Part shown: piece after piece, positions 19,090 to 23,572 of the stretch
Position numbering within the stretch: the first letter of the stretch is position 1
How the letters are laid out: each line of letters opens with the position of its first letter
Source of the DNA: Candidatus Asbonarchaeum danakilense
GTDB taxonomy: Archaea > Nanohalarchaeota > Nanosalinia > Nanosalinales > Nanoanaerosalinaceae
Reading direction: 5' to 3'
DNA: 31,951 bases
Assembly: GCA_034190465.1 (NCBI GenBank)
Contig: JAXINV010000079.1
Span: forward strand, 1-31,951
The notes under the pieces: generated by a model
Database searches by the model: none
The model's input: the letters and a program-made list of their open reading frames with translations, nothing else
What the model was told of the DNA's origin: nothing
Translations under genes and position numbers: made by a program

Positions 19090-19755
19090 ATGACTGACGA
19101 TATGCTGACCGGTGAGGAGCGCCGGTACCGGGAGTTCATGGCCGACGTGTTTGTCGGCCTTGAGGCGGACGATATCGAACCGTACGAGCACGATCAGCTG
19201 CGGATCGAGTACGGCGACGGCAGCAAACGGTACACATTGACACAGGAGGACTTCGACGAGATCACCGGCGACATGCTGGACGACGCACTCGAGCGGTACC
19301 ACGAGGACGGCGACGATGCACCGGAGCCGGAAGCGGTCGCAGCGCTGGCGGAGGCCCACACCGCCCGCGACGACCTGCCGACCGAGGACGAGCTCGAGGA
19401 GTGGCGTGACCCGGTCGAGGACATGCGTGTCGCGCTGACATCGACGACCGGGTTCAACGTCGCGGAGTACGTCGACGACTCGAAGTACGACGACTGGCAG
19501 GACGGAGGCCTGGACGCGTTCCTCGATTATCCCGACGAGACCGACGAGTTCGACGGCTTTCGGGACTGGTACGACCAGACGGTGCGGAACCTGGAGCTGA
19601 TGGACTACGACGAGCCGGAGCGGATCCTGACCGAGATCGCCAACCTGCCGTACGACGAGCCGGTCCACGATGTGCCGGACCGGTCGGTGACGGCGAAGGT
19701 GCAGGCCGCGGTGTCGTCGCTTCTCAGCGGCGGTGAACGCGTCGGCCCGGCGTAG
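19090..19755 (+). CDS. highly acidic hypothetical protein
   Basis: 221-aa ORF. TTTAAAA at 19061-19067 (leaderless start). Confidence 0.75.
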   Translation: MTDDMLTGEERRYREFMADVFVGLEADDIEPYEHDQLRIEYGDGSKRYTLTQEDFDEITGDMLDDALERYHEDGDDAPEPEAVAALAEAHTARDDLPTEDELEEWRDPVEDMRVALTSTTGFNVAEYVDDSKYDDWQDGGLDAFLDYPDETDEFDGFRDWYDQTVRNLELMDYDEPERILTEIANLPYDEPVHDVPDRSVTAKVQAAVSSLLSGGERVGPA

Positions 19756-19801
19756 CCGGGGCGCCGCTACATTTTTGTTGCTCCGCCGACAAGTCTTCTT
19801 C

Positions 19802-20260
19802 ATGGATCGACACCGGCTCCGTGAGAGGATCTACGAATACGATGCGAGGATCGCCCCTTGGCTCAGTCAGGAGGGTGTCGTCGTGCTGCGGTACAGTCTG
19901 GCACTGATCTTCATCTGGTTCGGCGCGCTGAAGCCGCTGGGGCTGAGTCCGGCTGCGGGCTTTGCCAGTCGGACGATCCCGTGGATGCCTGCAGATATCT
20001 GGATCCCATTGCTCGGTTTCTGGGAGGTTGCGATCGGCCTCTGCTTCCTCTACCGCCCACTGATCCGTGTCGCCCTGCCGTTGATGGGGCTGCACATGCT
20101 GGGGACGTTCTCAACGTTCTTCCTGCTACCTGAAGCGGTCTTTGCCCAGTTCCCGTTCGTGCTGACGATGGAGGGACAGTACGTGGTGAAGAATCTGGTC
20201 CTGATCGGGGCCGCGATGGTGGTCGGCGGTATCGTGACGGGGGAGACAAGCTCTTCGTGA
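19802..20260 (+). CDS. DoxX/DUF417 (YkgB-like) membrane protein
   Basis: LRYSLALIFIWFGALK, LGFWEVAIG and EGQYVVKNLVL motifs. Four hydrophobic segments. Confidence 0.82.
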   Translation: MDRHRLRERIYEYDARIAPWLSQEGVVVLRYSLALIFIWFGALKPLGLSPAAGFASRTIPWMPADIWIPLLGFWEVAIGLCFLYRPLIRVALPLMGLHMLGTFSTFFLLPEAVFAQFPFVLTMEGQYVVKNLVLIGAAMVVGGIVTGETSSS

Positions 20261-20279
20261 GAAGTGGAAAGGAAAGGGA
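20261..20279 (-). terminator. pyrimidine-rich terminator of the 171-nt RNA
   Basis: Minus strand reads TCCCTTTCCTTTCCACTTC directly after the closing stem. Confidence 0.5.
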
Positions 20280-20450
20280 GGAAACACCCCGCCGTCCCCT
20301 ATCGGCCGTGGAGTTATGACCGATGTGTTAGAGTGACTTCCCATCACACCCGGTTGCGGAGAGGTGGGTTATCGGGCATCCTCCCGGTATCCCCATCCTT
20401 TGCTCTTCGGTTTGGGGACTTTGAGTTGTTCGGGTTGACGGGGCGTATCC
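20280..20450 (-). ncRNA. candidate stand-alone 171-nt structured ncRNA
   Basis: TTATAAA box 23 nt upstream. 14-position terminal helix GGAUACGCCCCGUC/GGCGGGGUGUUUCC. Internal helices ACCCG/CGGGU, GUCCCCA/UGGGGAU, GGGAGG/CCUCUC, GUGAU/GUCAC and AUCGGUC/GGCCGAU. No convincing ORF. Confidence 0.7.
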
Positions 20451-20473
20451 AGTACCGTAGATGCCCGCAAACC

Positions 20474-20480
20474 TTTATAA
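20474..20480. promoter_or_regulatory. TATA box within a quasi-palindrome
   Basis: CAAACC-TTTATAAG-GGTTG. Confidence 0.65.
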
Positions 20481-20614
20481 GGGTTGTCCGGGCCGCCCCG
20501 GCTGGAAGAAAGCGCCTGTCCTGGCTCGGTGCCAGGATTATTAGTATTGGTTCTCCTCCCTTTTATGGATTCCGCCCCTCCACTACATGTCGTACCGTGC
20601 CGCGGTAACAACCA

Positions 20615-20622
20615 TTATATAT
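20615..20622. promoter_or_regulatory. bidirectional TATA box
   Basis: TTATATAT flanked by CAACC and GGTTG. Confidence 0.6.
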
Positions 20623-20655
20623 CGGGGTTGCCAAGTATTGTACCAGAACTTCGAA

Positions 20656-20764
20656 GGCTCCTTGCGGGGGAAGCACAGTTGAGCCAAGCGACAACATCGG
20701 GGGACACGTCAGGAAGATCGGTCGTTCTAGCTTCCGCTATCCACTCTTTCTGCTCCAGGGAGCC
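20656..20764 (+). ncRNA. candidate structured 5' leader of the 929-aa gene
   Basis: 9-bp closing stem GGCUCCUUG/CAGGGAGCC and internal GGAAGC/GCUUCC, followed by SD-like AGGGTGTGA. Confidence 0.45.
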
Positions 20765-20782
20765 CGTCAAGGGTGTGACTAG

Positions 20783-23572
20783 ATGAAGACTGTCAACGAG
20801 TACCAGGACAATCCGGAGGCACGTTACCAAAAAGAGTTCGAATGGCTCAAACAGGGGGATGAACTAGACTCGCGCTACCTGGCCGAGGAATTCGACATCA
20901 GTCCGAGCACCGCCAGGGAGGATCTTTCCGCGCTCAGTGACCGGCTTGGCCTGGAACCGGAACGCGGCGATCACGGCCGCCACGTCTATTCGCTGCCGGT
21001 CGACGATCCGGGCTACCTGGAGAAGTCTGAGGTCCGTGAGGCGGACGATATTGCCAACTACCTCTTCGGCGAGGCCTCCGGCATGCACCGCGATCTGAAC
21101 AACGATGAATGGGAGGAGAAGGAATCCATGACCCTGCTCACCATGTCGGAGCTGGGCTGGGGCACGAAGTTCAGCAGCGAGGAGGCCGTCGACGCGCTCG
21201 CGTACAAACTTGAGGAGAAGATCGATGCCGACGAACTCGACCCCGACGAGAACTTCGGCATCGTGATGAACGGCGGCGTGCTTCCCCGCATCTCGAAGTG
21301 GAACTACAAGACCGCCCGCCACGCCTACCGCGCCCTCGCGGAGTGGGAGGAGAACGAGTCGGACTCCACCGTCGAGGAGCTACGTGATACCGACCAGCTT
21401 GCAGAATACCTTGAGGACGAAAACATCCCGGACGATCCGGAGGAACGGGAGGAGTTCCTGGCTGGTGTCCAGGAGAAGATGGATGAGGTTCTCGACGGCA
21501 ACGAGAACATGCTCACCAACCTGCAGGAGGCCAGCGAGTACGCAGAAGCCCAGGTGGACAAGATCTACGACGCGCTTGGGGCGGAAGCAGATCTCTACAT
21601 GCACATGGGCGAGCAGGACGAGGCCAACATCGAGGACATGGAGGAGCTGAAGATCCAGGAGCTGACCGACGAGGTCGAGGACCGGATGGAGACGCTGCAG
21701 GAGAAGATCGATTCGCGGAACGACATGCTCCAGACGATGTCCCGTGAACTGGCAGACCTCGAGGGCGAACAGTACGACGAGGTCCGGGAGGAGATCGAGG
21801 AACACCTCGCGAACGACCGGGACCCCCGTGAACTGGAGCTCGAGGACTACGATATCGACAGCAGCGACCTGGAGACGTACGAGGAAGCACTTGAGGAACA
21901 GGAAGACCTCATCAAGGAGATCCGAGAGATGGAGCACAACCGGAACGCGATGCTCGTCGAGAAGGCGTTCGGCGAGGCAGCGGACTGGGGCAACCGGAAG
22001 TACCTTCCACCGGACAAGTCCGTACTGGCCCGCAAGCTTGCGGAGCTGGAGTACGAGGAGTACTACCACCAGATCGGCAACGTCGAGGAGGTGGACCGCG
22101 AATCTGACGTTACACGGTTCGACGTCGGCGGGTTCACGGTCGATCTGGCGCACAAGCTCCACTACACGAATACACCGCTCAAGACCGGGTTCAAGAAGGA
22201 GAAACGGAAGTACAAGGACCGTCAGGACGAGGAGGCCGACCTGTTCCTCACCGGCCACCACGGCCCGTTCAAGGCGCAGCAGTTCGTCCACGGCCGGGGC
22301 GAAGACGAGAACGACCACACCTGGATGGTCCAGCTATCAACGTTCATGGACCCTGAGAAACTGGAGGAAAACGGACTGGAGGAAGGCCTGACCCAGCTGC
22401 AGGACGTGAAGCGGATGGGCAAGGGCTTGTTCGACTCCACGGTCTCACTGATCAACATGACGGTCGAGGAAGGTCCTGACGGCGAGCTGCGGAAGCGGTT
22501 CAACGTTGAGGGCTGGGACGGCGAATACCTGAAGCGGCTGGGTGAACAGCTGAACGGTGAGAAGGTGCCGGGCAAGGACTTCGCCGACACGGATGACCGA
22601 CAGCACGTTGTCGCCCGTGGCGACGACCAGATCGGCGCCCAGCACGATATGGAATACATCTACGAACCGCTGACCGAGGAGGTCATCGCCGAGGACTTCC
22701 ACAACATCGATGAGTGGATGGACGGCCTCGAGGGCGACGCGACCGTGATCGAGGTCGGGGACGCGTTCCAGGGTACCGATGTCTACGATGGTCAGCAGCA
22801 GGAGGGCTCGATGTACCTCGGGATGGAGGAGCTCGACCTGAAGTCGGCGATCATCTCGGTGTTCGAGGACGAGGATGTCGAGTTCGAGTCCAAGGACGAG
22901 TTCTACGATTTCCTCCAGGAGACCGACCTTAGCTCAGAGACGCAGATGGCGCTGGACTATGCTGATCACCGCGACAAGCGCCAGGTCCCGGTCAACAACA
23001 TCGCGAAGCAGGGCGAGCTGGTCGAGGAGCTCTTGGTCGACAACTACGAGGAACTGATCGACCGCGGCGCTGATATGATCATCGTGGACGGCAACCACTA
23101 CAACGACAACCTGGACGGCCTCAGTGAGTCGGAGCGGTTGCTGGAGATCTTTGACTCGGAGTACCACGATGAGATCCGCACCGGTGACGGCAACGGTGAC
23201 GGCGACGGCACGTTCTACCTGGAGGGGGAGGACGGTGAGACGCTCCAGGTCCGGGCTAAGCACAGGCCGACAGGTTACGGCGCTGAGACGGTCGACAAGC
23301 TGCTGGACCAGGCGGTGGAGCAGGACACTGACCTTTTCGTCGCAGGCCACCTGCATGTCCCGTCGTTCGGCAAGCAGAACGATCTGATGGCGATGATGCC
23401 GGGATCGGCCCAGGCGACGAACGATTTCGTGAAGGGCTTCACCGATGCGCCGGCCGAGAAGGGCGCGGTCTACCTGTCGATGCCCAGTGACCCGGATAAG
23501 AAGGAGTTCGAGTTCGAGCATGTGTCGGTCAAGGGCCTGAACCCGCTGACAGGAGCTGCCGACGAGGAGTAA
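20783..23572 (+). CDS. wHTH + coiled coil + tandem calcineurin-like metallophosphoesterase protein
   Basis: N-terminal LDSRYLAEEFDISPSTAREDLSAL (DeoR-like HTH). Degenerate domain 1: MSELGWG, NGGVLP, MGEQD, LAHK, TGHHG. Domain 2: GDDQIG, VGDAFQG, DGNHY, AKH, AGHLH. Confidence 0.7.
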   Translation: MKTVNEYQDNPEARYQKEFEWLKQGDELDSRYLAEEFDISPSTAREDLSALSDRLGLEPERGDHGRHVYSLPVDDPGYLEKSEVREADDIANYLFGEASGMHRDLNNDEWEEKESMTLLTMSELGWGTKFSSEEAVDALAYKLEEKIDADELDPDENFGIVMNGGVLPRISKWNYKTARHAYRALAEWEENESDSTVEELRDTDQLAEYLEDENIPDDPEEREEFLAGVQEKMDEVLDGNENMLTNLQEASEYAEAQVDKIYDALGAEADLYMHMGEQDEANIEDMEELKIQELTDEVEDRMETLQEKIDSRNDMLQTMSRELADLEGEQYDEVREEIEEHLANDRDPRELELEDYDIDSSDLETYEEALEEQEDLIKEIREMEHNRNAMLVEKAFGEAADWGNRKYLPPDKSVLARKLAELEYEEYYHQIGNVEEVDRESDVTRFDVGGFTVDLAHKLHYTNTPLKTGFKKEKRKYKDRQDEEADLFLTGHHGPFKAQQFVHGRGEDENDHTWMVQLSTFMDPEKLEENGLEEGLTQLQDVKRMGKGLFDSTVSLINMTVEEGPDGELRKRFNVEGWDGEYLKRLGEQLNGEKVPGKDFADTDDRQHVVARGDDQIGAQHDMEYIYEPLTEEVIAEDFHNIDEWMDGLEGDATVIEVGDAFQGTDVYDGQQQEGSMYLGMEELDLKSAIISVFEDEDVEFESKDEFYDFLQETDLSSETQMALDYADHRDKRQVPVNNIAKQGELVEELLVDNYEELIDRGADMIIVDGNHYNDNLDGLSESERLLEIFDSEYHDEIRTGDGNGDGDGTFYLEGEDGETLQVRAKHRPTGYGAETVDKLLDQAVEQDTDLFVAGHLHVPSFGKQNDLMAMMPGSAQATNDFVKGFTDAPAEKGAVYLSMPSDPDKKEFEFEHVSVKGLNPLTGAADEE

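Follow-up and report, generated by a model that had tools for sequence, protein, structure and literature searches.

A predicted structured RNA gene, probably functional, found so far in one genus of nanohaloarchaea

Introduction

The question raised by this locus is whether a 171-nt element in the DNA of Candidatus Asbonarchaeum danakilense is a gene for a structured non-coding RNA and, if so, whether that RNA belongs to any known family. The element lies in a 31,951-nt stretch (contig JAXINV010000079.1, positions 1 to 31,951; hereafter the window), and the original prediction described it as an unassigned RNA that is either a novel archaeal class or a heavily diverged known RNA. To our knowledge, archaeal structured RNAs beyond guides, SRP RNA and RNase P RNA are barely catalogued. 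Table S3 of PMC10266531 gives four ncRNAs of Ca. Nanohalococcus occultus that are highly expressed and unassigned (SVXNc_nc0001 and SVXNc_nc0003 to 0005), and a 266-nt nanohaloarchaeal itsRNA is named in PMC7002113. No published description of the present RNA was found in the literature, including a full-text search for three sequence words; the itsRNA of PMC7002113 stood outside this comparison.

Results

Layout and signals of the locus

Two genomes carry the comparison: G000, the window's own genome (1.2 Mb, 92% complete), and G001, the sole genome of the same genus that was compared. The features at the locus are as follows.

19733..20260, plus strand: convergent gene for a DUF417-like membrane protein (weak match, E 1e-4, below the cut-off)
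20262..20279, minus strand: pyrimidine tract, probable terminator, abutting the stop codon of the DUF417-like gene
20280..20450, minus strand: predicted structured RNA gene, 171 nt (177 nt in the G001 counterpart)
20474..20480, minus strand: TATA-like box TTATAAA, with its end 23 nt upstream of the G at 20450 where the RNA is predicted to start
20783..23572, plus strand: divergent gene for a 929-aa HTH and metallophosphoesterase protein, adjoining the RNA in G001 too and 82% identical there

RNA positions are counted from the G at 20450 (nt 1) to 20280 (nt 171) on the minus strand. The promoter and terminator assignments rest on sequence matches. The centre of the TATA-like box lies 27 nt upstream of 20450, where it had been predicted, the RNA is predicted to start with GG, and the 23-nt distance from box to GG is identical in G001, whose box is AT-only. 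The pyrimidine tract predicted to follow the terminal helix is likewise present in both species (14 of the 15 nt directly after the helix), and its first 6 nt are identical. Promoter spacing and tail are thus preserved between G000 and G001 although the downstream gene has been exchanged: in place of the DUF417-like neighbour G001 has a different gene in the opposite orientation, which carries its own TATA-like box. The RNA gene is present in a single copy in G000 and has a single homologue in G001. Among 125 G000 windows with an end-to-end helix only one, that of the RNA, also has an upstream AT-rich box and a pyrimidine tail; this uniqueness is post hoc, because the criteria came from the element itself. 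A looser promoter-helix-tail descriptor also recovers 5S rRNA in G001.

Several other elements were observed in passing. A second candidate with TATA box, helix and tail lies at C44:116-226 of G000 (plus strand, 111 nt, folding at -61.5 kcal/mol) and lacks a homologue in G001, in G028 and in the searched part of G002. At C25:8640-8760 of G000 a conserved non-coding block, flanked by two TATA-like boxes, separates a gene for DNA ligase from a TrmB-like one; the 10-nt word that it has in common with the RNA is probably due to chance. Within the window, the open reading frame at 19090-19755 (plus strand) encodes an acidic 221-aa protein that is 74–77% identical in G001, where a paralogue also occurs; its one weak match elsewhere is in G002, and it has no Pfam or atlas match.

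The 929-aa product of the divergent gene combines an HTH, a coiled coil and a metallophosphoesterase, resembles phage YonJ-like phosphoesterases and has homologues in 7 of 70 genomes; its 82% conservation within the genus is unusually high, and no viral locus for it was found. Five proteins, P0002-P0006, are 52–82% identical to it; a relative at 70% identity carries a nanohaloarchaeal label from its source, which places the host organism among the nanohaloarchaea. The promoter and 5' leader of this gene (20582-20690, plus strand) contain conserved blocks, including an upstream palindrome-like word and a TATA box, and the leader has a hairpin-forming word with a G run common to G000, G001 and G002. 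These blocks could serve in autoregulation of the gene or belong to a second RNA element.

Conservation between species and strains

The RNAs of G000 and G001 match with a BLAST E of 5.6e-35 (134 of 168 aligned columns identical; 82–85% by global alignment). An identity of 80–85% for the RNA compares with 51.6% at 75,643 four-fold codon sites and with a median protein identity of 66.5%; among known RNAs of the same two genomes it is 84–89% for RNase P RNA and 90% for SRP RNA. Conservation ends at the boundaries of the RNA. Contigs of close strains independently show the same pattern: contig X4 shows at most 3 substitutions in 20372-20486 (115 nt of RNA plus promoter) vs 17 in the 83 nt of 20487-20569 (Fisher p 5e-5), there is no listed change at 20451-20486 in contigs X4 and X7, and the strain indels listed, 20323 and 20348, are confined to helix edges or linkers. 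The shared AUG frame is shifted by indels in G001 and in the strain contigs, so that no common reading frame is left; because frameshifting indels occur both between species and between strains, the RNA is non-coding. The element is under selection as RNA, and we regard it with high confidence as a functional RNA gene.

Secondary structure

The structural elements of the RNA, in transcript order, are the following.

20437..20450, minus strand: 5' strand of the terminal helix P1 (nt 1-14)
20432..20434, minus strand: P2, a 3-bp extension of P1 (nt 17-19 with 153-155), invariant
20389..20419, minus strand: hairpin H1 (nt 32-62), 7 bp, a 2x1 internal loop and 2 bp
20379..20385, minus strand: Shine-Dalgarno-like purine run (nt 66-72), invariant
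20340..20376, minus strand: middle arm in the best shared model (nt 75-111)
20301..20324, minus strand: hairpin H4 (nt 127-150), 7-bp stem and 10-nt loop
20280..20293, minus strand: 3' strand of P1 (nt 158-171), with one G-U to G-C change

The terminal helix of 14 positions was recovered as predicted; P1 has 13 pairs and one mismatch, with pair probabilities of 0.92–1.0 in both species. Since the pairs of P2 never vary, this extension offers no covariation test. H1 (pair probabilities 0.82–1.0) shows a double change that turns A-U into G-C, together with a single one-sided change, and its purine-rich 10-nt apical loop is invariant. H4 has undergone two double changes between G000 and G001, and at position 20306 the strain contigs X4, X7 and X9 replace U-G by U-A with the pair retained. 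The H4 loop is invariant in G000 and G001; in a divergent 99-nt contig (X9 record 21) five stem pairs are retained and the loop differs, as judged by eye.

Taken together, 32 of 32 pairs of P1, P2, H1 and H4 hold in both species, with 3 double and 2 one-sided changes, vs 41–55% paired positions and zero double changes in slid controls. With two full sequences only, and a covariation score that is reached by 53 of 500 shuffles, this covariation is not significant. The preference for the minus strand that had been read from G-U pairs was confirmed: the folding z is -2.47 on the minus vs -1.63 on the plus strand in G000 and -3.44 vs -2.18 in G001, and the G-U/G-C and U-G/U-A exchanges preserve pairing on the minus strand alone. 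As for the shuffle z-score that had been proposed as a check, it is stronger on the minus strand, but a value of -2.47 or below occurs in 11 of 120 random G000 windows, that is, the folding energy is ordinary.

The middle region (nt 63-126) admits at least 4 competing folds, within ~3 kcal/mol of each other in G000 and 8 kcal/mol in G001. In the best shared model the middle arm would consist of 3 bp (75-77/109-111), a tandem G.A internal loop (78-79/106-107), 4 bp (82-85/100-103) and a length-variable apex; this model ties the free MFE in G000 (-67.5) and is 2.7 kcal/mol less favourable than the MFE in G001, and its pairs are invariant between the two. The purine run at nt 66-72 could pair perfectly over 7 positions with nt 169-175, which comprise the end of P1 and the first 4 nt of the tail (-12.2 kcal/mol), and would then compete with the three final pairs of P1; because all seven pairs are invariant, this duplex is unproven. 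The only parts that the comparison supports are the terminal helix, the two hairpins and part of the middle arm. Of the five internal helices of the original prediction, the two hairpins and the 3-bp extension are common to both species; the count of five is only partly supported, because of the competing folds in the middle. The whole would fold as a four-way junction of P1/P2, H1, the middle arm and H4.

Comparison with known RNA families

A search of the window with Rfam 15 gave no match at gathering score, and none at E<=10 over 20150-20800; the bare RNAs of G000 and G001 matched at chance level only (9–16 bits vs cut-offs of 45–70). As had been predicted, the locus lacks tRNA, 5S rRNA, SRP and canonical RNase P character: there is no model or ARAGORN match for tRNA, tmRNA or 5S rRNA, and neither an SRP model match nor a helix 8 motif. 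The model RF00373 does not score at the locus, nor do RF02357 (type T), RF00030 (MRP) and RF00162 (SAM-I) in either G000 or G001. G000 has a full-length RNase P RNA on contig C18 (81.9 bits), an SRP RNA on contig C3 (RF01857, 107.5 bits) and 5S rRNA also elsewhere in the genome. Since these ordinary copies exist, the RNA is not their diverged stand-in, and the suggestion of a heavily diverged known RNA found no support for these three families.

Known classes with other hallmarks were also considered. A box C/D guide was rejected in view of the lack of canonical C, D, C' or D' boxes and of a conserved guide upstream of the D-like word; the sequence 5' of that word is the variable apex, which holds no shared 16S complement. 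An H/ACA guide was rejected likewise, there being no pseudouridylation pocket (the internal loop of H1 is 2x1 and H4 has none) and no conserved ACA tail. The RNA does resemble both guide classes in that its tandem G.A lies in C-box-like and D-box-like words and L7Ae is encoded; unlike these guide sRNAs it is 171 nt long and has a long terminal helix. In one reading the pair beside the tandem G.A is U.U in G000 and C.C in G001. The purine run followed by CCC, GAU and then CC recalls what we take to be the kink in P2 of the SAM-I riboswitch. Unlike that riboswitch, the RNA has closed ends, no downstream gene under its control and no match to RF00162, and placement in a 5' UTR was ruled out by the neighbour, which is convergent in G000 and has its own TATA-like box in G001. 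Retron or RT-linked ncRNA, TnpB/Cas12f guide and Y RNA were rejected because the cognate genes are absent: RT (PF00078), TnpB (PF07282) and Ro60/TROVE (PF05731) were each found in 0 of 2 genomes (G000 and G001, 92–93% complete). An IS110 bridge RNA would have an IS110 recombinase gene beside it and two large internal loops; no such gene occurs among the window ORFs that were scanned. Inspection by eye for the known motifs of split or permuted tRNA, of tmRNA, of cobalamin and c-di-GMP riboswitches, of CsrB-like RNA and of group I introns led to none of these being retained, for lack of a model match.

The tRNA genes gave some observations of their own. Many in G000 (C2, C3, C8, C10, C18, C21, C31 and others) have hairpin-rich introns of ~40–225 nt that are conserved in G001, and those of tRNA-Met (C8) and tRNA-Glu (C31) hold C/D-box-like words. 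A partial duplicate of the gene's own 5' end precedes several tRNA genes (G000 C5:47218, C11:36858 and C31:8051; G001 L246, L265 and L280; G028 L316), and others have recurrent short palindromic repeats immediately upstream; these duplicates and repeats may mark MITE-like insertions.

Range and relation to published nanohaloarchaeal RNAs

A covariance model (R1) built from the RNAs of G000 and G001 only, and therefore weak, was run over the 70 genomes of the phylum and matched in 2 of them, G000 and G001; a 14.5-bit match in G004 was rejected as antisense within a reading frame. In the phylum of G070 the model matched 0 of 151 genomes, a set without a positive control. BLAST over 61 genomes gave G001 plus chance words only, and two additional patterns over the 70 genomes gave no new member. 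Pattern scans of JGI metagenomes returned 53 matches and 0 homologues, and those of GTDB genomes 10 matches with the G001 contig (L224) as sole homologue; the context filter rejected every one of the 80 matches listed of 120 14-mer matches in viral contigs, and phage and plasmid BLAST gave no further member. Distant members might escape the pattern scans, because the patterns relied on loops that proved variable. The promoter-helix-tail descriptor found no counterpart in the whole of G028 or in 255 kb of the ~700 kb of G002; it is insensitive, since it missed the 5S rRNA of G028 itself. The search for nanohaloarchaeal homologues that had been proposed therefore yielded the homologue in G001 and none in the other genomes. 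The RNA appears restricted so far to one nanohaloarchaeal genus, which is a lower bound because the two-sequence model is weak and further members of the genus exist. The element is in all probability an uncatalogued RNA gene, as the original prediction had it; the word "class" is too wide for one genus.

Like the present RNA, SVXNc_nc0001 and SVXNc_nc0003 to 0005 are, as given in PMC10266531, stand-alone nanohaloarchaeal RNAs of 115–322 nt with no family. The closest likeness is to nc0001, whose family, matched by eye to L012/L372, is present in 42 of 70 genomes: it has its own TATA box and the same motif order, and a well-supported tandem G.A K-turn follows a similar 9-nt purine word. The core of this K-turn covaries and is C/D-like. 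Unlike the present RNA, which has none, nc0001 (~300 nt) has a short reading frame. Neither an HMM of nc0001 (29 members) nor a covariance model of its core scores at the locus or anywhere in G000 and G001; the RNA is therefore not a member of the nc0001 family. With nc0003 to nc0005 it has no motif in common by eye. Two details concern nc0001 itself: the family (L372:1517-1828, plus strand, and L373-L401) is apparently printed as the reverse complement in Table S3 of PMC10266531, and the stop codon of its short reading frame lies seemingly inside the K-turn.

Discussion

The features of the locus suggest how such a gene would work. Transcription most likely proceeds from the TATA promoter of the RNA, starts at the first G and ends in the pyrimidine tract. 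The ends would be closed by the long helix, like those of 5S rRNA in the same genome, and the RNA would most likely act by shape, as the protein-bound scaffold or decoy of a small ribonucleoprotein. Contact sites would be the tandem G.A internal loop (K-turn-like), the invariant purine-rich loop and the linkers, and a candidate partner is L7Ae. We infer this mode of action because the ends are closed, loops and linkers are conserved, a tandem G.A occurs together with L7Ae and there are no conserved antisense targets of at least 11 nt. Our main reading, with a probability of about 0.45, is that the locus is a self-contained gene whose product is a stable structured RNA, non-coding and working through its fold and protein binding.

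That L7Ae itself binds the RNA is a tentative and on balance doubtful proposal. L7Ae-family genes are present in both G000 and G001. The K-turn-like tandem G.A pattern arises in 80 of 3000 shuffles, has two readings and was noticed post hoc. A standard K-turn has a 3-nt bulge 5' of the G.A pairs and a Watson-Crick helix beyond it (as described in PMC5061560); one reading of the RNA lacks the helix on the 5' side of the bulge, and the other lacks the 3-nt bulge. A scan of 145 of the 215 genus-gained proteins found no dedicated partner and yielded general RNA enzymes only (an RNase R-like protein, RNase H, a helicase and HEPN). In a separate observation, two 92%-conserved proteins rich in lysine/arginine and acidic residues are encoded at C21:1811-2470 and C7:6032-6589 of G000 and are absent from G028; the one of them that was scanned has no Pfam match at 1e-7. 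A housekeeping ribonucleoprotein would be expected beyond one genus, and the failure to find the RNA in 68 of 70 genomes counts, like the lack of a dedicated partner among the proteins scanned, against the main reading.

Other explanations differ in what the RNA would act on. Archaeal sRNAs are typically intergenic, have their own promoter and are narrow in range (according to PMC7002113), and the RNA, being intergenic with its own predicted promoter and a narrow range, resembles them; it might then act in trans as an antisense sRNA, with its invariant loops and linkers base-pairing to mRNAs, and four conserved 10-nt antisense matches were found vs 0 in the reversed control. These four sites are three mid-gene and one promoter, conserved 9-mers number 12 vs 13 in the control, and no conserved antisense site of at least 11 nt exists in 0.8 Mb aligned between G000 and G001; helix-locked ends and a conservation near that of RNase P RNA would also fit a structural RNA better, and we consider this explanation unlikely. 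The neighbourhood suggests instead a partner (regulator, antitoxin or substrate mimic) of the 929-aa HTH-metallophosphoesterase, since the two genes are adjacent and divergent in both genomes and the protein is patchy (7/70) and resembles phage phosphoesterases. Yet none of the five other genomes with a homologue of the protein has a match to the RNA upstream of it (in G064 only ~60 nt upstream were examined) or, by model R1, anywhere else, and in G002 the homologous gene directly follows ProRS; the occurrence of the protein in five genomes with no detectable RNA weakens a partnership, which appears quite improbable. A DNA-level origin (a DNA-level site, a MITE remnant, a UTR element or a small ORF rather than an RNA gene) could draw on the fact that the TATA box is readable on both strands. 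Against it, the element is single-copy, its terminal repeat holds conserved G-U pairs, it remains constant while its neighbours change and it has no conserved frame, and we judge a DNA-level origin highly improbable.

Two further explanations assign the RNA to core machinery. It could be a ribozyme, perhaps a paralogue of RNase P or MRP RNA that has shrunk: it shares with these RNAs its own promoter, a terminal helix, a pyrimidine tail, a similar rate of conservation and two short words, AAAGUCC and GAGCAA, that recall RNase P and are both present in the RNase P RNA of G000, and its multi-way fold would suit a ribozyme. It differs from them in having no P4 pseudoknot and no CR-IV or CR-V; before the 3' strand of P1 both the P4 partner and CR-V (judged against what we take to be its consensus) are missing, the AAAGUCCCC run pairs locally, with covariation, and the CR-I-like word pairs within H1, with a double change. 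Together with the silence of RF00373, RF02357 and RF00030 at the locus, this leaves a ribozyme as little probable as a DNA-level origin. Alternatively, a U3-like or ribosome-associated RNA would pair transiently with 16S rRNA at the central pseudoknot, or hold 30S subunits through its Shine-Dalgarno-like run, and so chaperone assembly or park ribosomes. The 16S sequence used for this comparison is that of G001, which has a full 16S gene (L371:1501-2974) and 23S, with tRNA-Ala in the spacer (L371, L285), the G000 assembly being without 16S. Only two 9-nt complements to it are common to both species, nt 8-16 with 16S 866-874 and nt 74-82 with 16S 502-510, both of which we take to lie beside the central pseudoknot, and the invariant GGAGG (nt 67-71) is complementary to the 16S 3' end and would be masked by the 7-bp duplex with the 3' end of the RNA itself. 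The two complements compare with 0.63 expected (p ~0.13), nt 8-16 is buried in P1, a third match, to the 16S of G028, is lost against G001's own 16S, and the pair of motifs is confined to 2 of 70 genomes, though the 16S targets are conserved. The likeness to U3 snoRNA, one of possible function only, thus consists of two short small-subunit rRNA complements beside the central pseudoknot that are not significantly above chance, in an RNA of one genus that, unlike U3, has no box C/D core, and this role seems very improbable. No U3-like RNA is known in archaea, according to PMC8339473.

A bolder proposal, which we hold to be improbable, is that the RNA is the first member of a new archaeal class of stable RNA with a role in core machinery, as a ribonucleoprotein scaffold or a U3-like 16S chaperone, and that diverged counterparts, missed by the two-sequence model, may exist across DPANN archaea. 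In its boldest variant the terminal helix would open and the RNA, acting in trans, would base-pair with the 16S segments on the two flanks of the central pseudoknot, the Shine-Dalgarno-like run alternating between the RNA's own 3' end and that of 16S.

Returning to a structured RNA that acts through its fold and protein binding, the original prediction of an RNA gene with its own promoter and terminator is upheld by conservation, by the structure-keeping changes and by the lack of an Rfam match, the transcript itself being predicted. The RNA is known here from sequence alone, with two full sequences from one genus, and is probably a real, uncatalogued and functional structured RNA gene of that nanohaloarchaeal genus. 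With its ends, three supported helices and invariant loops it is a short, defined test object. If it were true that it chaperones 30S assembly, this would bear on whether archaea have an equivalent of U3. Because nanohaloarchaeal genomes are only ~1 Mb in size, an RNA that is kept almost like RNase P RNA is likely to be important to these organisms.
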